Sequence record: NC_010106.1
DNA from: Escherichia phage phiEcoM-GJ1
Direction: 5' to 3' (one strand)
Length of the DNA stretch: 52,975 nt
Shown here piece by piece: positions 7,006-27,514 of this stretch (position 1 is the first letter of the stretch; each line of letters starts with the position of its first letter). A model generated the notes under the pieces. It made no database searches. It worked only from the letters and a program-made list of their open reading frames with translations, and was not told the DNA's origin. The position numbers and the translations under genes were made by a program.

Positions 7006-7045
7006 ATTAACAAGGAGCATTCATTGAGTGTTCCTGATTAATTCA

Positions 7046-11028: not shown

Positions 11029-11430
11029 ATGATAGTAACTCCAATAAAAGTTAAGAAGAGCAAATTATCTTTACAAGAGAGGACACTAAGAAGCACTATC
11101 AGAGGTATAACAGCAAATAGGATTTCATCTGGAGATATCCAGGCAAAGCCTTGTAGGGTGTGTGGAAGTACATTTGTTGAGGCCCACCATTGGGATTACA
11201 GAACATACAAAGTAATCTTCCTTTGTGCCAAACACCACGTCGAGTGGCATAACCGACAGCGGTACTTCGAGCATCTTAACACAGCGTATGGCATCAAATT
11301 CGTGCACAGACCCAAGCCATTCCGGTTTAAATGGGTGTGGGTGAAGAACCATATGGGCTATCGCCCGAGGCCGTCAGAGACGATGCCAAGCGTCATACGG
11401 CGTGGTCAAAAATTAATCAAGGTAATCTGA
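11029..11430 (+). CDS. HNH endonuclease
   Basis: CRVCGSTFVEAHHWDYRTYKVIFLCAKHHVEWHN: Cys pairs and His cluster typical of HNH nucleases; AAGGAG RBS. Confidence 0.75.
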   Translation: MIVTPIKVKKSKLSLQERTLRSTIRGITANRISSGDIQAKPCRVCGSTFVEAHHWDYRTYKVIFLCAKHHVEWHNRQRYFEHLNTAYGIKFVHRPKPFRFKWVWVKNHMGYRPRPSETMPSVIRRGQKLIKVI

Positions 11431-11611
11431 AAACGCAGCCAAACGTACCCAGAAGACCTAAAAATTTTGACAGTGCAGTTATCCAGAATTGACACAAACA
11501 GTAGGCAGTAGGCTGATTTTCGGCCTTCCTGCGCTACTCTGTGGCCTGTTTCATGGGCCAAAAGATGAGAAGAGAAGTCACAAACACTGAATCGAAAATT
11601 GGAGAGTTCCT

Positions 11612-11821
11612 ATGGTTCAAAAATACGGTGCAATTAATCACAAAAACTTTCAGTTTAAGGGCTACACAATTGAAGAACTGTTAGAACTTGTTGAAGGTTG
11701 GGAGAATAATGCAGAAGCAATAGGTAGTGACCTTTATGATATGACTGGTGACTTGGCTATTGGCCCTAAAATCATGCGCGACTTAATTGCCAAAATTAAG
11801 GAGTTGCAAAATGGTTCGTAA
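11612..11821 (+). CDS. hypothetical protein
   Basis: 69-aa ORF with GGAGAG RBS. Confidence 0.5.
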   Translation: MVQKYGAINHKNFQFKGYTIEELLELVEGWENNAEAIGSDLYDMTGDLAIGPKIMRDLIAKIKELQNGS

Positions 11822-12131
11822 GCATTCTGCTAAAGTTTTGACGTTGAGAAATGTTCTAATGTTCCCTTCAAGTGGGGAAGGAGAGGAAGAAACAATCCAC
11901 TTCGTTCTCGTTGGTGGGCGTTGGTACTATAACGGCACTAATTCTTTCCACGTAAGTCTGTCTGAGAAAGATGGATTCTGGAAACACACCTTTAAGGAGT
12001 TGCTGGAAAGCAGTGCCAACTACACCCTTGCCGAAGTTAAGAAATACTTCTACCTCGGACCAAACAAGTCCATGCAAATTGCAACTCGCGAATGGACAAC
12101 AAACCAACCAATTTACGGAGTTCCATTTTGA
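11811..12131 (+). CDS. hypothetical protein
   Basis: Start taken at ATG 11811 (MVRKHSAK...) after GGAG; the track ORF starts at 11787. Confidence 0.5.
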   Translation: MVRKHSAKVLTLRNVLMFPSSGEGEEETIHFVLVGGRWYYNGTNSFHVSLSEKDGFWKHTFKELLESSANYTLAEVKKYFYLGPNKSMQIATREWTTNQPIYGVPF

Positions 12132-12418
12132 ACTTACAAGACAAATCGAAAGAAGAGTTGATTGAGATTATCCAGAAAGAGCATGAACTCGCTGGCATCA
12201 CAATTAACTTTGAACTCCAGGCAATGCAAGCTGTTGCTTTGGGTCATGGCCTAATGGCTACACTCATTCATGCCAAGAATGTGTTAGGCGTTAACGACGA
12301 AAAATACCAAATTCTGGAGAAAGCTGCGCAAGAGCGGATTTCGCAGTGCTTGGTGACATTAGTTGATTTGGGAATCGACGCAGAAACTGCAAACAAACGT
12401 ATCCTACAAGGCCACTAA
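12128..12418 (+). CDS. hypothetical protein
   Basis: TTG start after GGAG, overlapping the upstream stop (TTGA); alternative ATG start at 12092. Confidence 0.4.
   Translation: MNLQDKSKEELIEIIQKEHELAGITINFELQAMQAVALGHGLMATLIHAKNVLGVNDEKYQILEKAAQERISQCLVTLVDLGIDAETANKRILQGH
12356..12376 (+). promoter_or_regulatory. conserved motif copy ACATTAGTTGATTTGGGAAT (variant, inside a coding region)
   Basis: About 45 bp upstream of the 12420 start codon. Confidence 0.3.
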
Positions 12419-12419
12419 A

Positions 12420-13094
12420 ATGTCTTATCATGATGATGACAAAGAGATTGCACTATCAACGTGTAAGCAATGGCTCAATGATAATGATGCCGTCTATCTT
12501 GCCAAGGAAGATGTTATCATTATGTGGGTCCATTTTAATCCAGAATCGAAGCGCGGTGAGTGGCAACGCTACAAGATGAAAGAGGCTTGTCGCATAATTA
12601 AAGCCACACGCGCTGGCTTCTCTGCTATGAAGTATATTAAGCCAGAGATGCTAATGCTTGCTGCACAGGAAGAAGAACGTGCATATAAGCAAGCTGTAAA
12701 ATCTCGTTCAACTGTTCCTCCAGAGTTCTTTAATTTGGAGCGCGCTGGACACTTCAACAATTTAGAAATGTTGACACTGTGCCTGTTGCAAGAATTAGTT
12801 GGAAGAGGACAAAACATTGAAGCTGTTTGTCTTGGAGAACTCATGAAAGAGTTGTTCTCGGCAAAGGGCTTTGCTGTGCCAAACCGAACTTTACGCTGGA
12901 AATTGTTGCGAGCAGTCGCGCAAGAAGCTGGTGTAGTTGTTCGTGACAGAACAAACCGACTCACTGTGACTGGAGTTGGGCGTTTTGTAGCAATACAGAT
13001 TGAGGGTTATGACGAATCAATCATCACTGAACTCACTGTCGCTGAGACAAAGGATTTAGTAAATAAAACACTAGAACGATTCAATAGATATTGA
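12420..13094 (+). CDS. hypothetical protein
   Basis: 224-aa ORF from ATG 12420 (MSYHDDDKEI...); the track ORF starts at 12363. Confidence 0.55.
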   Translation: MSYHDDDKEIALSTCKQWLNDNDAVYLAKEDVIIMWVHFNPESKRGEWQRYKMKEACRIIKATRAGFSAMKYIKPEMLMLAAQEEERAYKQAVKSRSTVPPEFFNLERAGHFNNLEMLTLCLLQELVGRGQNIEAVCLGELMKELFSAKGFAVPNRTLRWKLLRAVAQEAGVVVRDRTNRLTVTGVGRFVAIQIEGYDESIITELTVAETKDLVNKTLERFNRY

Positions 13095-13123
13095 GTCGTT
13101 TGACGAATCAGAGCAGTTCTGAA

Positions 13124-13144
13124 ACATTAGTTGGATGTGGAAAG
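13124..13144 (+). promoter_or_regulatory. conserved motif ACATTAGTTGGATGTGGAAAG (candidate phage-RNAP promoter)
   Basis: 93 bp upstream of the codon-optimised 13219 gene. Confidence 0.45.
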
Positions 13145-13218
13145 AGAAAGGCTCTTTAATTTTTATCTAAGTCACGTCACCGTGGCGTGCAAAACTATTC
13201 AATATAAGGTATATACAA

Positions 13219-13557
13219 ATGGCTAAGATTGTAACCGTAACTCAGTACGAAGCTAACGATGGTTCCCTGTTCCTGACCGAAGCAGAATGTAATGCGCATG
13301 ACTTCAAACTGGAAAACGGTGCTAAAATTGAGAAAGCTGCCGAAGCGTACCTGAACACCGTTGGCGCTATCGACCGTTCTCGCTCCATGCAGAAGAACAC
13401 CATCGAGCAGTTCCTGGCATTCTACCTGCCGTGGGTTGAAGCTGGTGAGCCGGAAGTTGAGCGTACTAAGTTCGATACTCCGAAAGAAGCTAAAGTTGCT
13501 GACGCAAGTGTTGCCGAAGCTGCCGAAGCTGCTGTTGAAGAAGCTCCGGTATTCTAA
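13219..13557 (+). CDS. hypothetical abundant protein with acidic/Ala-rich C-terminus ending in F
   Basis: 112-aa ORF, AAGG RBS; CTG/CCG/CGT-rich codon usage resembling host highly expressed genes; ends ...AEAAVEEAPVF. Confidence 0.65.
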   Translation: MAKIVTVTQYEANDGSLFLTEAECNAHDFKLENGAKIEKAAEAYLNTVGAIDRSRSMQKNTIEQFLAFYLPWVEAGEPEVERTKFDTPKEAKVADASVAEAAEAAVEEAPVF

Positions 13558-14455
13558 GTTGCCGATGGCAAACTTGAGAGACTAAGCTAAATCGATCTGG
13601 CACGCACTGGAAGATTTCCGGTGCTGCCTTGAATCCATTCCGAGTGAGTGGGTTTCAATTTGTGCATAATCCAAACACCATTGCATGAGCCTTCGACGGA
13701 AGGCAATGTTGGGAAATTTGTTGTGTACAAATTGAAGTAGTTTTCTGAGTCTTACGACGGGCCTAAACTGCCTGAAGTTATTGCGACTGTTTTAAACACT
13801 AAACACAAGTGCAAATGATTCTGAAATGCGAGTTGCGGCTTAATTAAATTTAAGTCCTCTCCGTGGTCTTCCAATCCCATGTAACCAAATTTGGCGCATT
13901 GTGGCTTCGAGATGTGATTAATAAATCGGAGCAATAATTAATTTGTATTCTGCGATGCAATGCAGGCTTAAGTCCCTCAGTGCGCGTAGGGATGTGACAG
14001 AGTACAAACTTAATTATGCAGTTGGATATTTCTAGAGGACGGACGAGCACACTGGAATGTCTTCAATTGGTTTAGTGTGAGAAGCTATGCCAATGTGAAA
14101 CGTAACTCCTTGGGGAAGTGCTCCTCTGGATTTCCCTCCACACAGGAATCTCAAGCCTGTGGCAGCGACTTCGAAGCTGCACTGCGTAACCTAATTCACC
14201 CTAAAGTGAGTTGCCCTGAGCATGGAAATAAACTGCTCATAACCGATGGTATCTACAAAGGTAGATTAAATCAGGTTGCCTGTTGGTACTTGGGTTCAAC
14301 ACCTGCTTGCACTCGCAAAGTAGTGCCTCGTACCTGAGATGAAGTGAGTCGGGACCATCAATCCCACGTTATGTCAAAACACAGTAGGCGACTCACGGAT
14401 TCTACAAGCCTCGCAGTTCGGGAAAACCTGCGTTATCAAAACCCCCTTATTCTTT

Positions 14456-14550
14456 GGACGAGTAGCTCAGAAGGTTTGCATTGTGCTCAGTCAGGTAGAG
14501 CAATCTGTTCGACAGATGTGTCGTTGGTTCGAATCCAACCTTGTCCGCCA
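14456..14550 (+). tRNA. tRNA-like element, non-canonical (possible degenerate or interrupted tRNA)
   Basis: Acceptor stem GGACGAG/CTTGTCC (one G-U), T-arm GTTGG-TTCGAAT-CCAAC, discriminator G plus CCA; TAGCTCAG and TCAGGTAGAGC D-arm halves are separated by a 20-nt insertion that duplicates GCTCAG; the anticodon-arm region forms a hairpin with only a 5-nt loop, so no anticodon can be assigned. Confidence 0.35.
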
Positions 14551-14575
14551 CTCTCAACAACAACATGGAGTCCTC

Positions 14576-14716
14576 ATGGACATTGATGCATTAGACAATT
14601 TGGACTTCGGTGCTGCCGAAGAAGCAATTGAAGAACTCAAGAAGAAGCAGGACGAAGAAGCAATCGTTCCTGGTGCTGGCGATAATGACTGCTCAAGCGG
14701 TGCGTGTGCCATCTAA
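14576..14716 (+). CDS. hypothetical small acidic protein (46 aa)
   Basis: ATG 5 nt after GGAG, directly downstream of the tRNA-like element. Confidence 0.3.
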   Translation: MDIDALDNLDFGAAEEAIEELKKKQDEEAIVPGAGDNDCSSGACAI

Positions 14717-14724
14717 GGTGATTT

Positions 14725-14961
14725 ATGCAACAGCTTAAATCAATAGTTCTTGGCGTCCTGACTGCATTTGGTATTCTTATTGCAGTGTTCCTCAAAGGCA
14801 AAAGCTCAGGCAAAGCCGAGGAGCGTCAGGAAGCCACAGAGAAGCAACTAGATTCATTAAAAGAATCTATCGAGATTAAATCGCATGTTCAGAAAGAAGT
14901 GTCTAGCAGTTCTGATAGCAATGTCGATAGTGAGTTGCTCTCAAAGTGGGTTCGTAAGTGA
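14725..14961 (+). CDS. small membrane protein with N-terminal TM helix and charged helical tail (i-spanin-like or other bitopic membrane protein)
   Basis: AAGGTG RBS; IVLGVLTAFGILIAVFL hydrophobic segment, then a K/E-rich region. Confidence 0.5.
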   Translation: MQQLKSIVLGVLTAFGILIAVFLKGKSSGKAEERQEATEKQLDSLKESIEIKSHVQKEVSSSSDSNVDSELLSKWVRK

Positions 14962-15094
14962 TTATTGCTTAATTGCACAGCCAATATATTTGGATGTTGC
15001 AGAAGTGAAAATCTTATCACGCGAAACCAAAACACAGATTTTAGTCCACAATGAAACGTGGGCACAAAAGTGTTCTCAACTTACCCGACAGTGA
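14885..15094 (+). CDS. predicted lipoprotein (o-spanin-like or Llp-like), overlapping the 3' end of the upstream ORF in another frame
   Basis: MFRKKCLAVLIAMSIVSC: basic n-region, hydrophobic core and lipobox-like IVSC; starts inside the 14725 ORF in the +1 frame. Confidence 0.4.
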   Translation: MFRKKCLAVLIAMSIVSCSQSGFVSDYCLIAQPIYLDVAEVKILSRETKTQILVHNETWAQKCSQLTRQ

Positions 15095-16027
15095 GTGAAC
15101 AAATGCTCGCCATCGCATTTCATTTGGCAGTCCGGTACGGGACTTTAAACACACGTACATCATAGTCGAGGGAGTGCGCGACTTTAAATAACGAGACTCT
15201 AACCACTTGTGGTATGGTAGGTGTAATTCCTGCAAGTTGCTCTGGGCATAACAATTGAAATTGCTGCCTCGCATTGAACGCGAGAAAGTTCAGGTAGTCA
15301 CTTCCTAGAACAGTGGCCGGGAACAGACCTAGACAAAAGTGCTTGAGAACGTTAGCTCTGTCTTGCCAGCATTAATGGCACGTTGGCCGCGTAAAGGCCA
15401 CAGCGTCTGACCAACGTATCGGTCACCAAATTCAATGGATTCGTAGAGTTAATTAAACCTGCACGATGGGATAGGGATGAAGCATCCGAGGCCGACTGTG
15501 TAATTGTGAACGTGGAGTTCACCGAATCCGCCAAATCAATGGGCTAGTGCAAATGTCAGTCACTAGAAGATGTGTTGCAAAACGTCTTCCATGATGTGCA
15601 AAGTGTCAGTCACGTGCCCACCACTTTCCTAACAGTTATGCCTCTGTTCAAAAGGCTCAAGAGAGCGTCTGGCATACCGTAGCGATACGGCTTAGTTGCG
15701 CTGATTGTGTTGTGCAGAAAGAAAGTTCAGGCTTTCGTTTGGGTTACTCCTCATCCCGAAGTTAGCTGGATTCAAAATCCAGACTATGTTCCTATACACA
15801 TGAAATATGCAAGTCGAGGGTTCTTAATGTTCAAACATGATGCGAGCATTAAGCGGGTTTATACTTTTCCCGATGGTCCCCATAAACAAGGCTGATTCAC
15901 TTGGGCGGTTCGAATCAAATTTAATAAGTGTCTTGGCCGCAGTGGAAACATCATTTAAGCCAATGTATTGTAATGTTCGTAATAGTCCACGTCAGGACAC
16001 TTACTTAAATTTTAACTGGAGAGAAAC

Positions 16028-16258
16028 ATGAAAACTGCTGAAATTGCCGAAGAGATTTATAAGGCTGTAATAGCCAGTCAAATTACCAGTGAAGTCCTGC
16101 ACATGGATATTGAAGAAGTTCGCAATGCCTTTGGCGGTTTTGCAATCTTGTCAATAGAAGCTGCGGAAGCACTGACAAACACGTACAACCATCGTGAATA
16201 CGAGAAGCGGTCTGTACTAAATGCGTCGCTAAAAGAAATTCAGGCGTCATTAAAATAA
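16028..16258 (+). CDS. hypothetical protein
   Basis: 76-aa ORF with GGAGAG RBS. Confidence 0.55.
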   Translation: MKTAEIAEEIYKAVIASQITSEVLHMDIEEVRNAFGGFAILSIEAAEALTNTYNHREYEKRSVLNASLKEIQASLK

Positions 16259-16314
16259 TACCATTATCATGGTGCGGAGCTAATTTATCTCCCACCATAT
16301 GAACCGGAGAGCAA

Positions 16315-16965
16315 ATGATTACTGCAACACTCGTTGACCACATGGGCAGCGACCTCACAACTGTTAATGCTGCACGAGCTTCTTATGGTGCAGAGTCCCA
16401 TGAGATGACATTGCGCGACGAAAAGCTCATTGAATTTCTCGCAAGGCATAAGCACAATACACCTTTTGCCCATGCGTATGTAACATTACGCTGCACTGCA
16501 CCAATCTTTGTTGCACGCCAACTGGGTAAGCACCAGGTGGGCTTTCGTTGGAACGAAGTTAGCCGTCGTTACAAAGATGGCGAAGCAATCGAAATTGAAT
16601 GCTTTGTACCTGATGTGGTGTTTGGTCGTCCTGAAAAGTTGATGACTCAGACTGCACAACCATTGCCACAGGATTTTGCTGACGATATTCACTATCGCAT
16701 GGAAATCCACAACAAGGCTTGCATTGCAGAGTATGAAACGTTAATTGGTTTGGGGATTGCTCCAGAGCAAGCCCGAATGGTGTTGCCACAATCCATGATG
16801 ACTACATGGATTTGGACTGGCTCTTTACTGGGCTGGGCTAATATGTACAAGCAACGCTCTACAGAGCACGCCCAATATGAGGCACGTTTGTTTGCAGAAG
16901 AAGTTAATAAAATTATGTCAGAACTATTTCCGGTTTGCTGGAAGGCTTTGACTAATCAGGAATAA
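16315..16965 (+). CDS. thyX: ThyX-like flavin-dependent thymidylate synthase homolog with non-canonical signature
   Basis: Resembles ThyX across the N-terminal half (HxxTPFxHxxxTxxxxAPIFVARQ...S-RY); the position of the canonical RHR-x7-S signature reads KHQ-x8-S. Confidence 0.75.
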   Translation: MITATLVDHMGSDLTTVNAARASYGAESHEMTLRDEKLIEFLARHKHNTPFAHAYVTLRCTAPIFVARQLGKHQVGFRWNEVSRRYKDGEAIEIECFVPDVVFGRPEKLMTQTAQPLPQDFADDIHYRMEIHNKACIAEYETLIGLGIAPEQARMVLPQSMMTTWIWTGSLLGWANMYKQRSTEHAQYEARLFAEEVNKIMSELFPVCWKALTNQE

Positions 16966-16985
16966 TAGTTGAAGGAGGTCTGGCG

Positions 16986-17429
16986 ATGAAGCTAGCCAAA
17001 AGCTATATATATAAGGTCGCCAGCACCCGAACACTTACTTGGACCCTCAATGGTAAAGGTTATTTGTCTGCAACCATGCGATATAATAATCACAAATATA
17101 CTATTTATAAACATGTCCTAGTATTCTTTATTCATAATGGGTACGTTCCAGAAGAGGTTGACCACATTGATGGCAACACATTGAATAATGAACCGAGCAA
17201 CCTCAGAGACTCTACTCGCTCGCAAAATTGCAGCAACAGGAAAGTGTTCTCTAATAACGCTCTCGGTGTAAAAGGCGTCCGTAAAGTAGGTAACTCTTAC
17301 CAGGTAAGAGTCTGCCACAACGGTAAGACAACGTATATGAGGGCTTCTTCACTGGAAGAGGCCCAAATTATGTCCAAAAGAATAAGGCAATCTCTGCACA
17401 AGGAGTTCGCCAACGAAGGTAAAATCTAA
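16986..17429 (+). CDS. HNH-AP2 homing endonuclease (copy 1 of 3)
   Basis: HNH core HVLVFFIHNGYVPEEVDHIDGNTLNNEPSNLR followed by an AP2-type DNA-binding segment GVKGVRKVGNSYQVRV...; GGAGG RBS. Confidence 0.8.
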   Translation: MKLAKSYIYKVASTRTLTWTLNGKGYLSATMRYNNHKYTIYKHVLVFFIHNGYVPEEVDHIDGNTLNNEPSNLRDSTRSQNCSNRKVFSNNALGVKGVRKVGNSYQVRVCHNGKTTYMRASSLEEAQIMSKRIRQSLHKEFANEGKI

Positions 17430-19192
17430 TGAATATTAAACAATGCGTCGCGAAGATAAAGCACGATGTACCTGGTTGTAAATCTACGTCTGGAAAATCT
17501 TTGCAAGTTTGGGTTAATACAGACGAATCTGGAAACACATCATATTCTGGATTTTGCTTTGCATGTGGTGTTCTTGTTCCAAATCCATATGGAACAGATG
17601 CAGAGAAGTTTCCCGAAGTCCATATCAAGACGCCAGAAGAGATTCAGGCAGAGGTGGATGAAATAACATCTTGCCCTCCACTTGATTTGGACCACAGAGG
17701 CATAGAGCCTGAGTTTTGGAAGGCTGCTGGTGTGAGGCTGTTGTATTCTGAATACGACGGGAAAACGCCCAACGCATTGGCTCACGGGTATACCAAGAAT
17801 GGTAAACTTGTACGTTGGAAAATCAAATTACTAAATAAGAAGGTTATGTGGTCAGTTGGGGATACTCAAGATAATGACCCATATAACTTTATGGCTGCGA
17901 AGGCCATTGGAGGTAAGACATTATTCATTACCGAAGGTGAAGAAGATTGTATTGCTCTCCGTCAAATCCTTAAAACAATGAATCGTGGCAGTGCTTATGA
18001 AGACCTCGACTTTGCTGTTATTAGCTTAAGTGATGGCAGTAGCTCTGTGCATAAATGCCTTTCTCGTGTTGCAGAAGAAATCAAGCAACGTTGGGAGCAG
18101 GTTGTTATCGTATTTGATGACGATGAACCTGGACGTAAAGCTGCCAAAGAAGCGTGTCGATTGTTGCCTGGTGCAATGATTGCAACACTTCCAGCTAACG
18201 ATGCTAACGATTGTTTGAAGCGTGGCTTGCTCAAAGCTACTCAATCTGCTGTTGTGTTCCGTGCTGCCCGTCCTCTTCCTACAGCACTTGTCAACAAAGA
18301 ACTTCTTATGGAAGAGCTTGATGATGAGGTTGAGCAGGGTGTGGATTATCCTTGGCCCAAGTTAACCGACTTAATGTTTGGTCAACGTCGAGCCGAAGTT
18401 ATTACAATCGGTGGTGCAGAAGGTGGTGGTAAAACTACCTTGTCCCGTCAGATTGTGCATCACAACATTACCAAGCACGATTGGGGAGTGTTTACTGCAT
18501 ACATGGAGGAAACTCCTACAGAAACACTGCGCCGAATGGCTGGCCTTAATGACAACTTGCCATATTGGGAACCTGCGTTTACTCGTGAAGACCCTCGATA
18601 TGATGAAGCTAAGTTCCGTCAAACTGCTGCGAAGATGCTTCGTAACATGGAGATTTGGGACCGCAAGCAAGCTGGAGAAGACCCTTATGAAACCTGGGAT
18701 GGGTTAAAGACGATTCTTCGTCAGATTGGACCAGACATTGATATGTTTGTCCTTGATAACTTAACCTACTTATCGGAAGGGATTTCTGCCTCAGAGAAGA
18801 ACGACTTCTTAGGTAAGCTGTATGCAGATATTACTAAGCTGGCAGACCAATACCAGTTCCATGTGAATATCTTGTCGCACCTCAACCCTGTGGCAAAAGG
18901 TCAGCGACCTCATGAAGATGGCGGACGAATCAAGAAGTCAGACTTTACTGGCTCTCGTGCTGCTGCTAAATATTCTCATGGTATGTTTGGCTTTGAGCGT
19001 AATAGCCAGGCAGTTGACCCAAACTGTTCTATTATTCGTTCCATCAAAGCTCGTAAGAGTGGTAAAACAGAAGGCTTCAAGACGTATTATGACACCGAAT
19101 CTGGTCGAATTATTCAACGTTCTTGGGATGACTCTCTGTTCGAAACTAAAGAGATTGTTCAACTTACTAAGAAGAACGGTCCACACCAATAA
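17429..19192 (+). CDS. DNA primase/helicase (T7 gp4-like)
   Basis: N-terminal Cys cluster (CFACG), TOPRIM motifs FITEGEEDCIAL and IVFDDDEPGRKAA, Walker A GGAEGGGKTT, Walker B-like MFVLDNL. Confidence 0.9.
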   Translation: MNIKQCVAKIKHDVPGCKSTSGKSLQVWVNTDESGNTSYSGFCFACGVLVPNPYGTDAEKFPEVHIKTPEEIQAEVDEITSCPPLDLDHRGIEPEFWKAAGVRLLYSEYDGKTPNALAHGYTKNGKLVRWKIKLLNKKVMWSVGDTQDNDPYNFMAAKAIGGKTLFITEGEEDCIALRQILKTMNRGSAYEDLDFAVISLSDGSSSVHKCLSRVAEEIKQRWEQVVIVFDDDEPGRKAAKEACRLLPGAMIATLPANDANDCLKRGLLKATQSAVVFRAARPLPTALVNKELLMEELDDEVEQGVDYPWPKLTDLMFGQRRAEVITIGGAEGGGKTTLSRQIVHHNITKHDWGVFTAYMEETPTETLRRMAGLNDNLPYWEPAFTREDPRYDEAKFRQTAAKMLRNMEIWDRKQAGEDPYETWDGLKTILRQIGPDIDMFVLDNLTYLSEGISASEKNDFLGKLYADITKLADQYQFHVNILSHLNPVAKGQRPHEDGGRIKKSDFTGSRAAAKYSHGMFGFERNSQAVDPNCSIIRSIKARKSGKTEGFKTYYDTESGRIIQRSWDDSLFETKEIVQLTKKNGPHQ

Positions 19193-19253: not shown

Positions 19254-19739
19254 ATGTCCGATGAACAAAAGATTTCTCTGTGGCGAAGTATGTTTTCCTA
19301 CACAGAGGATGGTAAACTTTACAGGAAGATGGAGTCCGGCAAGTTGAAACTTGTTGGTAGCCCTTGTGGACGAGATAAACTCTATCTTAATGTGCGTGTC
19401 GGGAAGTCATTCGAGTACGTGCACCGGATTATCTTTGGGATGCACTATGGATTCTTGCCAAAGCAAGTTGACCATAAGGTGGGATTTGATAACTCACCAA
19501 GCAATCTTCGTGCGGCAGACAACCAACAGAACAATTGCAACGTTGTCAGAAAACTTGGCGCAGTGCCTTTCAGAGGCGTATCCAGAATGAAGAATGGTAC
19601 GTTTGTAGCCAGGATAAGAAACGGAAATTCGAGGATATACATTGGGACTTTCCCAACTGCCAAACAGGCTGCTTTAGCATACAACGAATTTGCAATAAAA
19701 CTCCACGGAGAGTTTGCGATAATCAATAGGAACATATAA
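19254..19739 (+). CDS. HNH-AP2 homing endonuclease (copy 2 of 3)
   Basis: HRIIFGMHYGFLPKQVDHKVGFDNSPSNLR ... GVSRMKNGTFVARIRNG; inserted between primase-helicase and DNA polymerase. Confidence 0.8.
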   Translation: MSDEQKISLWRSMFSYTEDGKLYRKMESGKLKLVGSPCGRDKLYLNVRVGKSFEYVHRIIFGMHYGFLPKQVDHKVGFDNSPSNLRAADNQQNNCNVVRKLGAVPFRGVSRMKNGTFVARIRNGNSRIYIGTFPTAKQAALAYNEFAIKLHGEFAIINRNI

Positions 19740-21673
19740 TGCTCTATCCTTGGGAAAATATGTATGCCAGTGACATTGAAACAACTGGCCTGTTGGAGCA
19801 AATGCGCAAGCAAGCTGCACCACGTCTTCACAACATCGGATATATTGATGTTCTGACTCGTGAAGAAACTGTAATAGAGTGGACCGACAGAAAGTCTATC
19901 CAGGCATTTCTGGATACAGGCCCAACATTAATCATGCACAACGGCGCAACCTTTGACTTTGAGGCACTGAGGTTCCTGGGCTACGACGTTTCAAAATGTA
20001 CACTAATTGATACTTTGTTTATCAGTTGGTATCTGCAACCTCGTCGTGTTAAGCACGGCTTAGAAGGTTACGGCGAAGAGTTTGGTGTGCCAAAACCAGT
20101 CATTGAAGATTGGGAAAATCAAACTCAAGAAGAGTACAACCATCGTGTGATGGAAGACTGCAAGATTCAGTTGAAGCTGTGGGAACAGCAATACATTCAA
20201 CTCTTGAAGATTTATAAATCTCCTAGCGAAGTTAAACGCTTCGTTGAATACCTGATGACAAAAGCTCGTCAACAAGTTATTCAACAACGTACTCGCTGGA
20301 AGCTGAACATTGAGAAGGCATTGGCATTTAAGGCCAAGCTGGAACCAATGATTAAAGAGAAGACCGACGCATTGGAAGCATCAATGCCGCGTATTCCAGA
20401 ATATGTAATCAAGACCCGTCCAGCCAAATGCCACAAAATGAACGGACAATTGTCTGCCACTGGTATTAAGTGGAAAGCTGTTTGTGATGCAAACGGTTTA
20501 GACTGGAAAGACCCAGACTTAGCTATCAAAGTCCTGAAGGGTTATAAGGAACCAAACGCTGGTTCTCACGTACAGATTAAAGATTGGCTGTTTAGCTTAG
20601 GCTGGGAGCCAGAAACATTTAAGTTTGACCGCAATAAGGAAACAGGTGAGACTCGCCAGATTCCTCAAATCACTGTGAAGGATGAAGATGGCAATCCTGA
20701 AATATGTCCAAGCCTCCATAAGTTGGCAGAAAGAAACCCCGAATCTGGTATTCAACATCTTATTGGGATGGGCGTGTATAAACACCGTCTCTCTGTTGTT
20801 AATGGTTTTCTTCGCGACGTCGATGAAGACGGATACCTTACTGCACGATGCGGTGGCCTTACCAATACTTTACGCCTTAAACACCGCGAACTTGTTAACC
20901 TCCCTTCTATTCGTGTATTTGGCGGTGAAGAACTTCGTTCAATGCTGGAAGCGTGGCGCGAAGACTACGAACAGTTAGGTTCTGACTTGTGTTCCCTGGA
21001 AGACCGTTGTAAGCACCACTTCCAATGGATGTATGACCCTGAATACGTTAAGAAGCAGTTGGCACCAGACTATGATGCTCACCTTGCAATCGGCGTAATT
21101 GGTGGATTTATTACCGAACAGGAATCTCAGGACCACAAGGACGGAATTAAGAAGTGTAAACAACGTCCAATGTTTAAGACCACAAACTATGCTTGTCAGT
21201 ATGGTGCTGGTGTACCAACTGTAGCTCGTTCTGCGGGCTGTGACCAGACTACTGCTGCACGACTGCATAAAGCATATTGGGACTTGAACTGGTCTATCAA
21301 AGAGATTGCTGCGAACACCAAAGTTATCACAGTTGATGGTCAGATGTGGCAACAGAATCCAGTAAACAAGTTCTGGTATTCGTTGCGTACAGAGAAAGAC
21401 CGCTTCTCCACATTGTGTCAGGGCACTGGTGCATATGTGTTTGATATTTGGTGTAACAACATCATTGCAATTTGTAATGAACGTTGGGGATGTGACCCGC
21501 TTCTGTCTGGACAATTCCACGATGAATTGATTCTCCAGGTTAAGAAAGGCTTCCGAGATTTGTGGACGGACTTACTTAATGAAGCAATGGACCGAACCAA
21601 CAAAGAACTTAAACTCAATCGTGATTGTGCATGTGATGTACAATTTGGCGATAACTACGCAGAGATTCACTAA
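19739..21673 (+). CDS. family A DNA polymerase (T7 gp5-like) with 3'-5' exonuclease domain
   Basis: Exo I motif YASDIETTGL; polymerase motif A-like DLCSLEDR, motif B KTTNYACQYGAG, motif C QFHDELIL. Confidence 0.9.
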   Translation: MLYPWENMYASDIETTGLLEQMRKQAAPRLHNIGYIDVLTREETVIEWTDRKSIQAFLDTGPTLIMHNGATFDFEALRFLGYDVSKCTLIDTLFISWYLQPRRVKHGLEGYGEEFGVPKPVIEDWENQTQEEYNHRVMEDCKIQLKLWEQQYIQLLKIYKSPSEVKRFVEYLMTKARQQVIQQRTRWKLNIEKALAFKAKLEPMIKEKTDALEASMPRIPEYVIKTRPAKCHKMNGQLSATGIKWKAVCDANGLDWKDPDLAIKVLKGYKEPNAGSHVQIKDWLFSLGWEPETFKFDRNKETGETRQIPQITVKDEDGNPEICPSLHKLAERNPESGIQHLIGMGVYKHRLSVVNGFLRDVDEDGYLTARCGGLTNTLRLKHRELVNLPSIRVFGGEELRSMLEAWREDYEQLGSDLCSLEDRCKHHFQWMYDPEYVKKQLAPDYDAHLAIGVIGGFITEQESQDHKDGIKKCKQRPMFKTTNYACQYGAGVPTVARSAGCDQTTAARLHKAYWDLNWSIKEIAANTKVITVDGQMWQQNPVNKFWYSLRTEKDRFSTLCQGTGAYVFDIWCNNIIAICNERWGCDPLLSGQFHDELILQVKKGFRDLWTDLLNEAMDRTNKELKLNRDCACDVQFGDNYAEIH

Positions 21674-21945
21674 TGCAAACTGTATATTCCATCTTTGATA
21701 TGCAAGAGTCAGAGCACCATATGTTTGCCACTGATTCCGAAGTTCCTTCAAAGGACGCTGTAATTGCGTTCCTTGAAAAGATTAAGGACAAAGTTTTCGC
21801 TTCGTCCGACCCACAGTCTCAAGCATTTAACGATGAGACATTTAAAAGCCTCCAAACTTTAATTTCGGCAACGTCTTCATTTGAAGAGCTGTCCGAAGCA
21901 TTAGTTGGATATGACTTCCGACTTGCTATGTTGCAGGTCGACTAA
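21673..21945 (+). CDS. hypothetical protein
   Basis: 90-aa ORF overlapping the polymerase stop (TAATG). Confidence 0.55.
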   Translation: MQTVYSIFDMQESEHHMFATDSEVPSKDAVIAFLEKIKDKVFASSDPQSQAFNDETFKSLQTLISATSSFEELSEALVGYDFRLAMLQVD

Positions 21946-21975
21946 CTCCTAAACTGAAATTTAAAGGTACTCAAA

Positions 21976-22842
21976 ATGGCATTTGCTGCTCCTACACTGG
22001 CCTCGAACAAGACTCCTTCTGCTGCACCATTACTGGAAGCGGGTGGTTATCCTGCTCGTGTTTGCCGTATTATCGACCTGGGCTTACAGCCTGGTTCTGC
22101 TAAATATCCTACTCCTTCCTTGAAACTTCTGGTGACTTTCGAACTGCTCGACGAGTACATGAAAGAAGTTGACAGTGAAGGTAAAATGGTCATGGTTCAA
22201 GACCCAGACGAAGATGACGGCATCATGATGGCGAAGAATCTTGAAGATAAGCCGCGTTGGTTTGACTTTGAGTTTACCTATAATGCTGACGGCTTCATGG
22301 GTGAGAACTCCCACATCTACAAATTCGCCAAGGCGATTGATGCACTGGAAGTTAAACCTAATCTGGAACAAGGTATTCAGGGCCATCCTGCCAAGAACCT
22401 GCCGGATTGGTTGGGCGAACCTCTGATTGTTGGCATTGTTCAATATACCAAGCAGTCCGGCAAGAATGCTGGTCAGGTTGCGAACAAGGTTGCTACCTTC
22501 TCTCCGATGAAGTCCAAAGAGAAGAAAGAAGCTAAAGCTCTGGTGAACCCGACTGTATTCTTCGACATGTCTGAGCCAGACCTGGAAGTATTCAACAAGC
22601 TGCCTGGTGGCGAATCTCCGTATGCAATCAAGAACCGTATTACTTCCGGTGTTGATTTCTACAAGACTAAGCTGTCTGCACTGTTAGGCGGTAAACCTGC
22701 CGATGAAGGTGCTGTACCGAATCAGGCTTCTGATGAAGAAGTTGATGCAGCTATGAAAGCTGAACTGGAAGCACAGGCTGCTGCAAAAGCACAGCGTGAA
22801 GCGGAAGGTGGTGCTGCTGGCGGTACAGGTATGCCGTTCTAA
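21976..22842 (+). CDS. hypothetical abundant protein (possible ssDNA-binding or replisome accessory protein)
   Basis: 288-aa ORF with host-optimal codon usage, followed by a strong terminator; Ala/Gly-rich C-terminus ending GMPF; the function is a guess from context only. Confidence 0.6.
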   Translation: MAFAAPTLASNKTPSAAPLLEAGGYPARVCRIIDLGLQPGSAKYPTPSLKLLVTFELLDEYMKEVDSEGKMVMVQDPDEDDGIMMAKNLEDKPRWFDFEFTYNADGFMGENSHIYKFAKAIDALEVKPNLEQGIQGHPAKNLPDWLGEPLIVGIVQYTKQSGKNAGQVANKVATFSPMKSKEKKEAKALVNPTVFFDMSEPDLEVFNKLPGGESPYAIKNRITSGVDFYKTKLSALLGGKPADEGAVPNQASDEEVDAAMKAELEAQAAAKAQREAEGGAAGGTGMPF

Positions 22843-22852
22843 TTATAAATAT

Positions 22853-22877
22853 GGCTCCTTCGGGAGCCTTTAATTTT
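22853..22877 (+). terminator. intrinsic terminator
   Basis: GGCTCC-TTCG-GGAGCC hairpin followed by TTTAATTTT. Confidence 0.65.
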
Positions 22878-23913
22878 GGAGCTTACCAAAGTGAGTAAGA
22901 AACGAGTTTTGTTGCTGGTTGACGGCGACATGGTTGCATTCAGTCACTGTGCTGCTGAGGAATACGGCAAAGATTCAGAAGATATTAACTTTGCTAAGAT
23001 TCAAATGTCAATGGATTCCAAGATGGAATTCCTTGCGAAACGTGTAGGAGCTACAGAAGTAGTTACCTGCATTTCACCATCCAAAACATTCCGTAATGTT
23101 CTTGCCGAGAATTACAAAGGCAATCGTGATGATGTTTGGCGACCAGAAAACTTGAAGAATGCGAAAGCACATCTTATGGTTGCCTGGAATGGCGTATGGA
23201 TGAAAGGTCTGGAAGCAGATGACCTCCTTGCCGTATTCGCACGTCATGAATACGAAATGACAATGGGTAAACGTAATGAGATTAAGAGCCTCAAGCGCAT
23301 TGGTCCTTGCACATATGATGAAGTCTGGATTGCGTCGCTGGACAAAGACTTGCGACAAATCGGGCAGAATGGTGGTGCTGGTCCGGTAATTAAACATTAC
23401 CAATGGGAACGAGAAACCCAGGGTATTGGTGAGAAGGTTGTAACTCCAAAGGATTACGGCGAACTCAAACTAATCATCAAGGATAATGGCAAAACGAAGA
23501 AGAAAGAAGTTAAAGGCAATGGCCCTAAATTCTTCCTGCATCAATTGCTTATTGGTGACTCAACGGATAACGTTATGGGTTGCGGAGTTCTTGAAGAAAG
23601 AATCTACAAAACTGGTGCCAAAGCTGGAGAAGCTTATTTCCGTCGTGATGGCATTGGTGCAGTTGCTTCATTCGAAATGCTGGATGGTACAACCTCCTAT
23701 GCAGAAGGTTTGAAGAAAGTTATTGGTGCATATATTATGCGCTTCGGGGATGGTTGGGAACAAGAGCTGCTCAAAGTGGGCCGTCTTGTTTACATGCACC
23801 ATCAAATTGAAAAGGGCAATTGTGTTCGCCTGTGGCATTACAAGAACATTAACGAATACTTTGACCTTAAAGAGAATCGTATCCTCACTCAAGAAGAGTA
23901 CCTCCAGAAATAA
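22876..23913 (+). CDS. 5'-3' exonuclease / flap endonuclease (FEN family)
   Basis: LLLVDGDMVAF and GDSTDNVMG match the conserved FEN/PolI 5'-nuclease acidic clusters; start uncertain (TTG 22876 or GTG 22891). Confidence 0.75.
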   Translation: MELTKVSKKRVLLLVDGDMVAFSHCAAEEYGKDSEDINFAKIQMSMDSKMEFLAKRVGATEVVTCISPSKTFRNVLAENYKGNRDDVWRPENLKNAKAHLMVAWNGVWMKGLEADDLLAVFARHEYEMTMGKRNEIKSLKRIGPCTYDEVWIASLDKDLRQIGQNGGAGPVIKHYQWERETQGIGEKVVTPKDYGELKLIIKDNGKTKKKEVKGNGPKFFLHQLLIGDSTDNVMGCGVLEERIYKTGAKAGEAYFRRDGIGAVASFEMLDGTTSYAEGLKKVIGAYIMRFGDGWEQELLKVGRLVYMHHQIEKGNCVRLWHYKNINEYFDLKENRILTQEEYLQK

Positions 23914-23924
23914 TTGGAGTTGGA

Positions 23925-24449
23925 ATGGCTTACGGTTATTGTGGAACGGAAGCCAAGTTTGTATCTTGGCTCCAATCTGCTATTCGAAGTGTTTGGTCTA
24001 AACACCCAAGCAAACTTGCGCTGATACAATCTCGACGCATTGCATTGAAGGTTGGTGACTCAAAGAAACCAATCTTCCACATTCAATGCTACCATTGCAA
24101 GAAGTTGTATAAGCTCAAAGATATTGAAGTAAACCACAAAGTTCAAGTTGGTGGCCTTCTTAAGTTGGAAGACCTGCACCGCTTTGTGGACAACCTTTTA
24201 CTGGTTCAGCCAGAAGATTTGGAATTGCTGTGTAAAGATTGTCACGGCATTATTACATACATGGAGCGATATGGTGTATCACGTCGTGATGCAGTCATTG
24301 AGAAGAAGTGTATCGCATTTGCCAAATTGTCTGACGAAGAGCAAATTGCCAAGTGCAATCTTGCTAAAATAGAGCCAGTTCCTAAAACCAAAATCGGACG
24401 CAAGAATGCTGTTCGAGAATACCTGAGAAAGAATCTTAATGTCTATTAA
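23925..24449 (+). CDS. HNH/endonuclease VII-like Zn-binding nuclease (possible junction resolvase)
   Basis: CYHCKK ... EVNHK ... CKDCH pattern; GGAG RBS; lies in the replication/recombination module. Confidence 0.55.
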   Translation: MAYGYCGTEAKFVSWLQSAIRSVWSKHPSKLALIQSRRIALKVGDSKKPIFHIQCYHCKKLYKLKDIEVNHKVQVGGLLKLEDLHRFVDNLLLVQPEDLELLCKDCHGIITYMERYGVSRRDAVIEKKCIAFAKLSDEEQIAKCNLAKIEPVPKTKIGRKNAVREYLRKNLNVY

Positions 24450-25194
24450 GCTCCTCGATGATGGTACAAGATACACAAAGGCTCACGCACATGATTGGGA
24501 AGACCCAGACTGCCGAATCAAAGGGCGCTGTGAACTCTTCATCAAGATTGACGGAATTCGAGCTATCCGTAATAAATCAGGTAGTGTCTGGAGTCGTAAT
24601 TCCAAACCCCTACCTCATTTGGACCACTTACAGTTCAGAGATGCTGAGATATTCCGTAATAGTTGGAATGAGACTTCTAGCATCCTCGGACGTATTGACC
24701 CACCAAGCATCCCTCTAACCCAGGACAATGTGTATGAGTTGAGCGATGGTGCTGTTGACCCACGCCTGTACATCGGCTGGTGCAAAGACCCAAGCAATGA
24801 AAACCTTAAGGCATTGATGGATAAATATCTGGCGCTTGGTCATGAAGGTATCATTGTCCGTGATGCAAAAGGTAAATGGTGGAAGATTGTACCATATAAA
24901 TATGCCGATGTGAAGATTACTGGTATGAAAGAAGGTACTGGTGCTCTTAAAGGTATGTGTGGTTCTATCTCCTCGAACTACGGCAGTGCTGGCTCAATGG
25001 TGAAAGATTGTCTGGCAGACCACGGCATTCCAGAATCTAACACATTGATTCGTAAGTGGTTGTGGGAACATCGCCACGAGCTAATTGGTTCGATTATGCA
25101 AGTTCGATATCGTGAGAAGACAGAAGCTGGCAAATTCCGCTTCCCTTCTTTGGTTCGCCTTCGTACAGACAAGAGTGAGGAAAGTTTTGATTAA
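24439..25194 (+). CDS. ATP-dependent DNA ligase (small)
   Basis: Adenylation motif I KIDGIR; C-terminal FPSLVRLRTDK resembles ligase motif VI; 251 aa. Confidence 0.75.
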   Translation: MSIKLLDDGTRYTKAHAHDWEDPDCRIKGRCELFIKIDGIRAIRNKSGSVWSRNSKPLPHLDHLQFRDAEIFRNSWNETSSILGRIDPPSIPLTQDNVYELSDGAVDPRLYIGWCKDPSNENLKALMDKYLALGHEGIIVRDAKGKWWKIVPYKYADVKITGMKEGTGALKGMCGSISSNYGSAGSMVKDCLADHGIPESNTLIRKWLWEHRHELIGSIMQVRYREKTEAGKFRFPSLVRLRTDKSEESFD

Positions 25195-25813
25195 GCGTTT
25201 AGCTGTCATTCTTAATGGCCCACCTGGCTGTGGTAAAGATACAATTGCCAACAAGATAGTTGCTGCCGAGGAATCATACTTTCTCGGTAAGCGTCGATTC
25301 ACTAAACACCAGTTTAAGGATGCACTGTATGAGCATACTGCCAAACACTTTCAAGTCGATGTGGACAAGTTTATCCACTATGCTTCGGACCGTGACCTCA
25401 AAGACTCTATCTCCCTTGCAGGTCTTGGTGGCAGAACACCTCGTCAAGCTCTTATTCACGCTAGTGAAGACATCTATAAACCTCGCTACGGACAAGACTA
25501 CTTCGGTAAGGTTGAAGCTGCTCGTGTTGAAGAACTCACGGGGCGTATGGGTGGCATTATTAATGTCATTTATCCCGATGGCGGTTTTGGTGATGAAGTC
25601 GTTGCCATTGAGTCTGCTTATGATTTTGTCCTCATTGTGCGTTTGCATCGTGATGGTTTTGATTTCACGGGCGATTCTCGCAGATACATCAACCTCCCAG
25701 ACACACCTACCCGCGTAACAGTGGACGAACATTTAGTTGATGGTAAAGTGGGTGATTCTGTATTCAAAGTGTTCAACTGGATTGAGCGCGTAACTTATCA
25801 AGTAGAGAAATAA
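25187..25813 (+). CDS. P-loop nucleotide (dNMP) kinase-like protein
   Basis: Walker A LNGPPGCGKDT near the N-terminus (compare T4 dNMP kinase GVKRSGKDT, from memory); start uncertain (TTG 25187 or GTG 25175); the track ORF 25085.. overlaps the ligase. Confidence 0.6.
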   Translation: MIKRLAVILNGPPGCGKDTIANKIVAAEESYFLGKRRFTKHQFKDALYEHTAKHFQVDVDKFIHYASDRDLKDSISLAGLGGRTPRQALIHASEDIYKPRYGQDYFGKVEAARVEELTGRMGGIINVIYPDGGFGDEVVAIESAYDFVLIVRLHRDGFDFTGDSRRYINLPDTPTRVTVDEHLVDGKVGDSVFKVFNWIERVTYQVEK

Positions 25814-25815
25814 TC

Positions 25816-26415
25816 ATGTCTTGCATGACCCAAGTTGTTGCAGTTAAACGAGTGCATCCTAATGCGAAATTACCTGTGTACGCTACTGCTGGCGCTGCTG
25901 CTGCTGACGTTTGCACTATCTCCGATAGCACTGTTGTCATCAATCCCGGCTGCTCTGCTGTTTTCGATACTGGCCTCCAATTCGAGATTCCAATTGGATA
26001 CGAACTCAAAGTACATAGCCGTTCTGGTCATGGCTTTAAGTCTGGCATTCGCCTGGCAAACTGCACAGGAATTCTGGACTCCGATTATCGTGGCAATCTT
26101 ATGGTTAAGCTGCACAACGACTCGGACACAGCCTTTGTGGTTCAGCCAGGTGAACGTATTTGTCAGGTGCAAGTTAGTAAAGCTACTCAACACCATTTCG
26201 TTGAAGTTGACCGCTTGAATGCAACTGGTCGTGGTGAGGGTGGCTTTGGCTCAACTGGTCGTGTGGAACTTGGTCAACATGAAAGACCACACATTCCTGA
26301 TGGTTCACACTCGCACAGCATCTCTATTGTTGGTGATGGCGGTGTGAAAGTGTCTTTGCCAGGTACTGTTGAAATCACTGGTTCCCACACCCATGGGGCC
26401 GAACGTTACAAATAA
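25816..26415 (+). CDS. dut: dUTPase (trimeric type) with ~50-aa C-terminal His-box extension
   Basis: Motifs HSRSGHGFK, GILDSDYRGN, GERICQ, RGEGGFGSTGR in canonical order; extra C-terminal GSHSHSISIVGDGGVKVSLPGTVEITGSHTHGAERYK. Confidence 0.85.
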   Translation: MSCMTQVVAVKRVHPNAKLPVYATAGAAAADVCTISDSTVVINPGCSAVFDTGLQFEIPIGYELKVHSRSGHGFKSGIRLANCTGILDSDYRGNLMVKLHNDSDTAFVVQPGERICQVQVSKATQHHFVEVDRLNATGRGEGGFGSTGRVELGQHERPHIPDGSHSHSISIVGDGGVKVSLPGTVEITGSHTHGAERYK

Positions 26416-26432
26416 TCTGGAACCTATCTGAA

Positions 26433-26762
26433 ATGAAACTGTCCTCACCTGTTGTAGTAAATAACCGCAAAGTTAAATTTGCATATCTCAAGTCTAATGT
26501 CACCTCCACTGGTGGCGGGACTTATCTCACCCGTGCACTTGCAGTTCGCAACGAAACAGGTGCGGATGTTATCGTTTTCATGCTTCCTCATGGTGAAAAC
26601 ACAATCAAGAACGTCGAACGTATCAAGCGTGGGCGCGAAGATTTAATGTCGGCTGTTAAGCCGCTGATACTGCCATTTAAGATTGTGGTGGTTGTTGGTT
26701 CTACCCAAGCATATCTTGAAGATTTCTATAAAGATATGGCCTGGAGCGATATTAAATATTAA
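26433..26762 (+). CDS. hypothetical protein
   Basis: 109-aa ORF; could be a small terminase subunit by position, but there is no motif support. Confidence 0.5.
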   Translation: MKLSSPVVVNNRKVKFAYLKSNVTSTGGGTYLTRALAVRNETGADVIVFMLPHGENTIKNVERIKRGREDLMSAVKPLILPFKIVVVVGSTQAYLEDFYKDMAWSDIKY

Positions 26763-26779
26763 GCGACACGCGTAATTAG

Positions 26780-26805
26780 GGAGGCTATCTGGCCTCCTAT
26801 CTTAT
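26780..26805 (+). terminator. candidate terminator hairpin
   Basis: GGAGGC-TATCTG-GCCTCC followed by TATCTTATT; nested in an outer inverted repeat AAGCGAC...GTCGCTT. Confidence 0.4.
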
Positions 26806-26817
26806 TCGGAGTCGCTT

Positions 26818-27003
26818 ATGCGCACAATACAATGTCCTAACTGCCATTATGAAATTGCAGAAGATGATTTCATAACGCAGCAATGTCCTATCTGTGATTC
26901 ATACATGCCACTAAACCGCCTGTATTTAAAGGCCGATTCTGGTTTAGGCAGCATCATTCGCATCAATCCCGTGCAAACTCAGCCATTAGTGGATTGTGAT
27001 TAA
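26818..27003 (+). CDS. zinc-ribbon small protein
   Basis: CPNCHYEI ... CPICDSYM: two CxxC pairs; 61 aa. Confidence 0.5.
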   Translation: MRTIQCPNCHYEIAEDDFITQQCPICDSYMPLNRLYLKADSGLGSIIRINPVQTQPLVDCD

Positions 27004-27514
27004 AAACAAAGAGAACGAATCAATGTCAATACTAAGAGACAGATTGGTTCAATTACTTCACTACGACGAAGCTACTGGCATCTTTACATGGGTGCACGCC
27101 AACAGTAACAGAGTCAAAGTTGGTGATGTTGCAGGCACTATTGGAAGTGCTGGTTACATCTACATTAAGGTTGACGGGGTACGCTATGGCGCACACCAGC
27201 TTGCATTCATCTTTATGGGTGAAGAAGTTCCTGAAGTAATTGACCATGTAGATACCGTACCTTCCAATAATGCTTGGTACAATCTACGTCCTGCCACTTG
27301 CCAGAATAATTCCTATAACATTGGAATAACTTCCAGAAACACCTCTGGGATAAAGGGAGTTGGTTGGGATAAAGAGAGAAAGAAGTGGGTTGCCAAAGTC
27401 TCACTAAATGGGAAGCAACACACTCTTGGAAGATTTACATCTAAACTTGATGCTGAGGCAGCTGCCAAGCTGTTTAGAGAGAAGAACCACAAAGAATTTG
27501 CAAGGAGTCTGTGA
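26996..27514 (+). CDS. HNH-AP2 homing endonuclease (copy 3 of 3)
   Basis: HQLAFIFMGEEVPEVIDHVDTVPSNNAWYNLR ... GIKGVGWDKERKKWVAKV; immediately upstream of the terminase gene; start GTG 26996 or ATG 27023. Confidence 0.8.
   Translation: MIKNKENESMSILRDRLVQLLHYDEATGIFTWVHANSNRVKVGDVAGTIGSAGYIYIKVDGVRYGAHQLAFIFMGEEVPEVIDHVDTVPSNNAWYNLRPATCQNNSYNIGITSRNTSGIKGVGWDKERKKWVAKVSLNGKQHTLGRFTSKLDAEAAAKLFREKNHKEFARSL

Follow-up and report, generated by a model that had tools for sequence, protein, structure and literature searches.

Between positions 11029 and 27514 of Escherichia phage phiEcoM-GJ1 (sequence record NC_010106.1; the window below means the whole analysed stretch of 52,975 nucleotides, to which all positions refer), five genes of the replication module look like HNH-type endonuclease genes: three HNH-AP2 genes, an HNH gene at 11029 and an HNH/endonuclease VII-like gene at 23925. 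A prediction made from the sequence alone took all five for free-standing homing endonuclease genes (HEGs), which raises the question of which of them are mobile and how they came to sit between essential genes. All five open reading frames (ORFs) were found at the predicted places on the + strand. We put at roughly 85% the probability that the window is a Carltongylesvirus-type chasevirus genome with three independent, free-standing HNH_3-AP2 HEGs resembling I-HmuI. As judged from sequence comparison, the homing interpretation is well supported for these three genes, plausible for the gene at 11029 and wrong for the gene at 23925.

About 40 records of Chaseviridae phages of Escherichia, Yersinia and Shigella, assigned to the genus Carltongylesvirus or to unclassified Cleopatravirinae, have a replication module with 90-95% identity to the region 11000-28000 of the window; JL1 is the nearest (95.3%). 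Annotations of these relatives refer to phiEcoM-GJ1 gene numbers, with gp32 before ThyX, gp38 after the polymerase and gp45/gp49 around the terminase, and this numbering leaves the slots gp34, gp36 and gp47 at the positions of the three HNH-AP2 genes of the window. Because both gene order and numbering match, we equate these genes with ORF34, ORF36 and ORF47 of phiEcoM-GJ1, described as three putative HNH endonucleases that are absent in phage ST32 (PMC6266442). Both the three genes and the lack of them in ST32 have thus been published before, and the genes are a textbook case of free-standing HEGs. The genome map in the Chaseviridae profile from the virus taxonomy committee ICTV already colours homing endonucleases (PMC12842549), and the paper on the Yersinia phages does not discuss the endonuclease genes of this phage group. 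What is new here, relative to the one-line presence/absence remark in PMC6266442, is the anatomy of the junctions, the linked primase allele and the family-wide survey of sites.

The three HNH_3-AP2 genes and their sites

The three genes are referred to below as HEG1, HEG2 and HEG3:

16986..17429, + strand: HEG1, candidate HNH_3 homing endonuclease gene with an AP2-like C-terminus, 147 amino acids (Pfam HNH_3)
19254..19739, + strand: HEG2, candidate HNH_3-AP2 homing endonuclease gene, 161 amino acids (Pfam HNH_3 and AP2)
27023..27514, + strand: HEG3, candidate HNH_3-AP2 homing endonuclease gene, 163 amino acids from the ATG at 27023 (Pfam HNH_3 and AP2)

All three proteins match the Pfam family HNH_3 (PF13392) above its curated cut-off of 24.8 bits (HEG1, 52.9 bits, E 2.9e-14; HEG2, 29.7 bits, E 4.9e-7; HEG3, 29.0 bits, E 8.4e-7) as well as phrog_99 'HNH endonuclease' (1e-39 to 1e-61), and the HEG2 protein additionally exceeds the AP2 cut-off of 33.3 bits (33.9 bits, E 3.8e-8). 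With 27-38% identity to one another, they are distant paralogues and not recent duplicates. A family profile built from eight proteins, the three from the window and five homologues from relatives, reached I-HmuI (PDB 1u3e; 1.8e-6) through its nuclease half (profile positions 9-97) and plant AP2/ERF domains (1e-7 to 4e-5) through its C-terminal half. These structures were reached by the family profile only: PDB sequence searches with the single 23925, 11029 and HEG3 proteins returned nothing meaningful, and none of the five proteins matched an NCBIfam model. The catalytic motif D-H...N-L-R...N...N is invariant in all eight proteins (D74, H75, N87, N96 and N99 in the HEG3 protein), and the family was found by tblastn in 3,092 phage records. 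Thus, the predicted HNH domain and paralogy of the three genes stand, and two details call for revision, namely the AP2 domain of HEG1, which Pfam does not recognize, and the start of HEG3, originally placed at 26996.

The predicted positions of the genes are also correct: between ThyX and the primase/helicase, between the primase/helicase and the DNA polymerase, and immediately upstream of the large terminase. Each HEG forms a self-contained cassette of 460-490 bp directly 5' of an essential gene (primase/helicase, DNA polymerase and large terminase, respectively). Presence and absence were scored by querying a phage collection with the junction sequences, which covers ~30 distinct close phages (~45-47 records), and the exact limits were taken from pairwise BLAST comparisons with ten fetched loci. 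The blocks missing in relatives are 16966-17428, 19236-19720 and 27030-27519, and their limits do not vary from one relative to the next. At all three sites, the stop codon of the HEG overlaps the start codon of the downstream essential gene, and the 3' end of the HEG supplies the ribosome-binding site of that gene, so that its expression is preserved; the essential gene stays intact and is probably translationally coupled to the HEG.

Each HEG is shared with only one to five of the ~30 close relatives, none of which has two of the three. The copies in carriers are 96-100% identical to those in the window, and the backbones of the carriers are only ~88-92% identical, which is evidence of horizontal spread. 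Thus, HEG1, HEG2 and HEG3 all show presence/absence polymorphism at a precise, shared site.

HEG1 occupies the ~5-nt spacer between the ThyX stop codon and the primase ATG (block ~16966-17428), has its own Shine-Dalgarno sequence, GAAGGAGG, and ends by overlapping the primase start (TAATG). It is present in 7 of ~47 related records, those of TH29, PYps3T, PYps4T, PYps16T and PYps23T together with RefSeq duplicates, and absent in all other relatives, including JL1, Bp7, ST32, TH26 and Pel53 as well as the Erwinia, Pantoea and Aeromonas chaseviruses. Its presence goes together with a particular allele of the neighbouring gene:

17429..18100, + strand: 5' segment of the primase/helicase gene, first ~225 codons, divergent allele (identity to HEG1-positive versus HEG1-negative phages)

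Across ~16900-18100, the window is 96-99% identical to the HEG1-positive phages TH29 and PYps3T and 87-99% identical to PYps23T, versus 70-82% to every HEG1-negative phage; past ~18100, it is 95-100% identical to JL1, Bp7, ST32 and BSBP01. Within primase codons 1-225, comparison of the window with ST32 shows 109 synonymous and 27 amino-acid-changing codon differences, and comparison with PYps3T only 16. In 15 genomes, two primase 5' haplotypes (~670 bp) are completely linked to HEG1 status, with 75.7-77.9% identity between the groups and 92-99% within them, whereas the remainder of the gene, used as a control, is ~94% identical throughout. We interpret the linked segment as a putative co-conversion tract, a cleavage-immune allele hitch-hiking with HEG1, or both. 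This linkage is supportive of homing but not proof of it, because these genomes are mosaic also at places unlinked to any HEG.

HEG2 (block 19236-19720) lies in the 86-nt spacer between the primase and polymerase genes, just 3' of a conserved hairpin. Its end, TAATG, overlaps the polymerase start and changes the polymerase start codon from GTG to ATG. TH26 is the only carrier among the relatives, with 97-100% identity in the gene compared with ~91% in the backbone. In PYps23T, PYps16N, BSBP01 and 2KOFFS, the same site is taken by an unrelated endonuclease gene of the phrog_2340 family. In alleles with that gene, the polymerase gene is unusually divergent over its first 260 nt (72-88% identity to empty alleles, as against 83-98% among the empty alleles themselves).

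HEG3 almost certainly starts at the ATG at 27023 and not at the GTG at 26996, judging from the sequence, because the former start is annotated in PYps16N and Pel53 and the latter would overlap a conserved upstream ORF. The insertion (27030-27519) rearranged the beginning of the terminase gene:

27514..29529, + strand: large terminase gene with a rebuilt start (Pfam Terminase_6C; junction alignment with 10 relatives)

HEG3 uses the original ribosome-binding site of the terminase gene and its first 7 nt (ATGTCAA), and the new Shine-Dalgarno sequence (AAGGAG) and ATG of the terminase gene come from the 3' end of HEG3, which changes the terminase N-terminus from MSKT... to MAT.... Only PYps16N and Pel53 (3 records) carry HEG3, and the protein is 100% identical to that of Pel53. 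The gene is 96-100% identical to the PYps16N and Pel53 copies, whereas the flanking 400 bp are 77-91% identical to these phages and 98-100% identical to the HEG-less ST32, BSBP01 and JL1. HEG3 has therefore moved without its flanks.

Homing and its alternatives

Under the homing interpretation, a mixed infection with a HEG-less relative would bring the endonuclease into contact with an empty allele, to which it would bind via its AP2 domain and which, close to the junction, it would nick (as enzymes of the I-HmuI type do) or cut. Repair from the HEG-positive genome would then copy the HEG, and in the case of HEG1 also the adjacent primase segment, into the recipient, and silent substitutions beside the insertion points would protect the carrier from its own enzyme. 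The case for the three genes is made by the exact polymorphic sites, the conservation of the genes beyond that of their flanks and the HEG1 tract.

Several points weigh against homing of all three genes. There is little or no co-converted flank at HEG2 and HEG3, and homing usually leaves some. Mosaicism that is unlinked to HEGs (ThyX, 16400-16900; ligase, 24500-24700) means that the HEG1 block could be the product of ordinary recombination. With regard to the DNA-binding part, the AP2 match of the HEG3 protein (30.3 bits, E 5.2e-7) lies under the Pfam cut-off, and Pfam AP2 is undetected in the HEG1 protein, although its C-terminus can be aligned to the AP2 parts of the paralogues. Finally, the enzymatic activity, cleavage sites and homing of these proteins are predictions from sequence comparison.

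A reading that goes further than homing, and that we regard as speculative and rather unlikely, is that the HEGs are weapons between co-infecting chaseviruses, beyond being neutral parasites, and, separately, that the 11029 gene could be a domesticated HNH gene with a non-homing role early in infection, because its C-terminal extension is nearly invariant. If the HEGs were weapons, HEG1 and the deeply diverged primase 5' allele that is completely linked to it, in which most changes are synonymous, would form a haplotype for 'attack plus immunity' that sweeps through the group, and the two unrelated endonuclease families at the primase-polymerase site would reflect an arms race at the starts of essential genes.

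It is improbable that the HEGs are passive passengers of ordinary homologous recombination among co-infecting chaseviruses, with endonucleases that are inactive or irrelevant to their spread. Such recombination is evidently common in the group, given the strong mosaicism and the divergent ThyX, ligase and exonuclease segments that are unlinked to endonuclease genes. However, every copy has an intact catalytic motif, carriers share near-identical, uninterrupted ORFs, and the insertions are exactly bounded single-gene cassettes and not blocks with arbitrary ends. Furthermore, the two endonuclease families recur at ~10 sites, nearly all of them intergenic, and no other gene class does so.

We consider it very improbable that the three genes are ancestral and were lost repeatedly, such that the polymorphism would stem from deletion and not from gain by homing. 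HEGs are known to decay and be lost, and from a sporadic distribution by itself gain and loss are indistinguishable. However, the HEGs of carriers are 96-100% identical while the backbones differ by 8-12%, the backbone around HEG3 is 98-100% identical to that of HEG-less phages, distant relatives, other genera among them, have the same compact and functional HEG-less junctions, and in other relatives the primase-polymerase site is taken by an unrelated endonuclease gene. On these data on distribution and identity, we rejected repeated loss.

There is hardly any chance that HEG3, the gene beside the terminase, assists packaging, as had been suggested for it, as a cofactor in the manner of HNH proteins that act with the terminases of HK97-type phages: although it lies directly upstream of the large terminase gene and is probably translationally coupled to it, it is absent from 42 other records (~30 phages) that have both flanks (72-99% identical), which together with its family membership leads us to reject a required packaging role, its product is an I-HmuI-type HNH_3-AP2 protein with paralogues adjoining ThyX, primase, polymerase and early genes and not packaging genes, and its insertion replaced only two terminase bases and rebuilt the start, as expected of a selfish insertion.

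The remaining two genes and the survey of relatives

The other two genes differ from the HEGs and from each other:

11029..11430, + strand: rare HNH-like gene, 133 amino acids, in a 583-bp cassette at 10888-11470 (phrog_2340; Cys/His pattern)
23925..24449, + strand: core nuclease gene, 174 amino acids, between the 5'-3' exonuclease and DNA ligase genes (HNH/endonuclease-VII-type ββα-metal core and C-terminal SAP-like helical domain)

The 11029 gene, which has a good AAGGAG ribosome-binding site, is found in none of the close relatives in the phage collection; between the anchors at 10887 and 11471, every relative has ~268 bp of unrelated sequence versus the 583 bp of the window. The only full-length homologue in the collection, with 53% amino-acid identity, is that of Erwinia phage Calisson, where it is syntenic, following the antirestriction gene, and Calisson is alone among Erwinia phages in having it. 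Metagenomic homologues form four clusters and occupy the same locus wherever their context is visible. The protein matches phrog_2340 'endonuclease' (E 8.8e-10) over profile positions 100-164 of 171 only, and in PYps3T, PYps23T and BSBP01 it has weak homology (E ~1e-7) to polymorphic endonuclease genes. It has an invariant C-x2-C...HH...C-x2-HH-x3-H pattern (C42, C45, H53, H54, C66, H69, H70 and H74) and a nearly invariant C-terminal third. Searches of Pfam and NCBIfam with this protein gave no match and that of PDB nothing meaningful, the structure model was poor (predicted local distance difference test score, pLDDT, of 52), and the fold search was uninformative. We class the gene as a rare HNH-like cassette at a variable locus of the early region, and probably another mobile or once-mobile endonuclease gene. 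The prediction that it is an HNH homing gene is thus borne out as to polymorphism; however, the polymorphism takes the form of cassette replacement, and the nuclease activity is putative.

The 23925 gene is present at the identical position and with the same length (174 amino acids) in 14 of the 14 relatives examined, where it evolves with the backbone. Conservation at an identical position in every relative is what the original prediction itself had named as speaking against homing, and its homing claim for this gene fails; in the gene-order comparison that it had proposed, the genes at 16986, 19254, 27023 and 11029 showed presence/absence polymorphism and this one did not. Homologues form ~70 protein clusters, mostly from contigs of chasevirus size (~50-54 kb), and have been labelled inconsistently by depositors ('HNH endonuclease', 'endonuclease VII', 'dNMP kinase' and 'hypothetical'). 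The protein has no match to Pfam Endonuclease_7 and no sequence match in PDB, and its score against Pfam HNH (PF01844; E 0.079, 13.6 bits) is below the cut-off of 21.4; it does have the fold and the metal-ligand pattern (two CxxC pairs and H-N-H). From these features, we take it to be a core nuclease of HNH/endonuclease-VII-like type that is fixed in the replication-recombination module, and not a homing gene. Judging by fold and position, its most likely role is the resolution or debranching of DNA junctions.

A profile scan for endonuclease genes in 16 related loci detected HNH_3-AP2 genes at six further intergenic sites (window-equivalent ~9630, 12420, 13700, 15060-15160 and 16310). HNH_3-AP2 and phrog_2340 genes together occupy ~8 other sites in relatives, nearly all intergenic. 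The second family (phrog_2340, without a Pfam match) also occurs at the junction of gp39 and the exonuclease gene in PYps3T, PYps23T, PYps16N and Mangalitsa. Copies of phrog_2340 genes are located in the fetched loci L006 (11252-11635), L007 (10857-11240), L010 (3577-3975) and L019 (5144-5527), as well as in L005 (15096-15524, with homologues), and depositors have labelled them 'baseplate wedge protein', 'endonuclease VII' or 'endonuclease'. No such endonuclease genes were detected in the surveyed region of JL1, Bp7, ST32 and TH28. In the window, hmmsearch and phmmer over all ORFs revealed no additional member of the two families, and the late region runs colinear with that of ST32 and lacks any insert of HEG size. 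With its three HEGs and the 11029 gene, the window therefore has a load near the top of the range, comparable to that of Pel53 and PYps23T (four each).

Several further observations were made in the same comparisons. In BSBP01 (locus L010, 3983-6571; window-equivalent 21192/21195), the DNA polymerase gene consists of two ORFs split by a 145-amino-acid HNH ORF (5510-5947), either an intron or a split gene resulting from endonuclease insertion; the polymerase gene of the window is uninterrupted. Three regions of the window, ThyX (16400-16900), ligase (24500-24700) and exonuclease (22900-23900), form sharp blocks with 65-80% identity to some relatives and 97-100% to others. None of these blocks adjoins an endonuclease gene in the window, and they represent either general mosaicism or the footprints of past endonucleases. 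The phage deposited as 'Staphylococcus phage Pel53' (PP952070.1; locus L008), with Staphylococcus hyicus as the host, is ~89% identical to this coliphage group, which is surprising for an Enterobacteria chasevirus and may reflect a misassigned host.

A 95-nt tRNA-Leu gene (anticodon CAG) was predicted by ARAGORN in the early region, at 14456-14550. The tRNA content varies among the relatives: Pel53 has a tRNA-Arg, and the presence or absence of tRNAs is noted in the Yersinia phage paper. Additionally, a + strand 19-mer, (T/G)TCTGAAACATTAGT(T/G)GGA, recurs at 10491-10509, 10632-10650, 13117-13135 and 21891-21909 (4 copies with up to 3 mismatches, versus 0.01 expected), and in weaker form at 7041 and 41977. 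Short intergenic gaps hold most of the copies, the one at 21891 lies in the 3' end of a 90-amino-acid ORF, and one is at a breakpoint where relatives have ~120 bp extra; JL1, Bp7 and ST32 have the identical 19-mer at a second site. This element could be a promoter of a phage RNA polymerase or another regulatory element; chasevirus promoters had not yet been identified according to the ICTV profile (PMC12842549). A scan of 10400-27700 for consensus promoters and terminators yielded sites no more frequent than in shuffled sequence.

Comparison with known systems

For annotation, the gain is that mobile endonuclease genes are told apart from a core nuclease, and that the gene adjacent to the terminase receives a corrected start and is no longer to be taken for a packaging factor. 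Intron-less homing is well documented for T-even and other phages, and the linked primase allele, together with the multiply invaded primase-polymerase site, would make these phages a convenient natural system for studying it and marker exclusion.

The 23925 protein aligns over only 78 residues with T4 endonuclease VII (gp49), with no match at the sequence level and with a different, SAP-like C-terminal domain. HEG3 resembles the HNH gene of the HK97 gp74 type in adjoining the terminase gene, but differs in belonging to the HNH_3-AP2 subfamily and in being dispensable in nearly all relatives. With I-HmuI of Bacillus phage SPO1 (PDB 1U3E, HNH_3-type), the three HEG proteins share a homologous nuclease domain and a catalytic motif of the H-N-N type; in contrast to I-HmuI, their genes are free-standing between other genes, and a predicted AP2-type DNA-binding domain replaces the C-terminal modules of I-HmuI. 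The free-standing homing endonucleases MobE, SegB and SegG of T-even phages spread in mixed infections with co-conversion of flanking markers, as described in two reports (PMC2790892, PMC2330249). Like these, the HEGs of the window are single-gene cassettes that lie in the intergenic space between conserved genes, and their occurrence is polymorphic among relatives; however, the Seg proteins are GIY-YIG enzymes and the Mob proteins belong to a different HNH group, and homing, which was demonstrated experimentally for the T-even genes, is a prediction from comparison for HEG1, HEG2 and HEG3.

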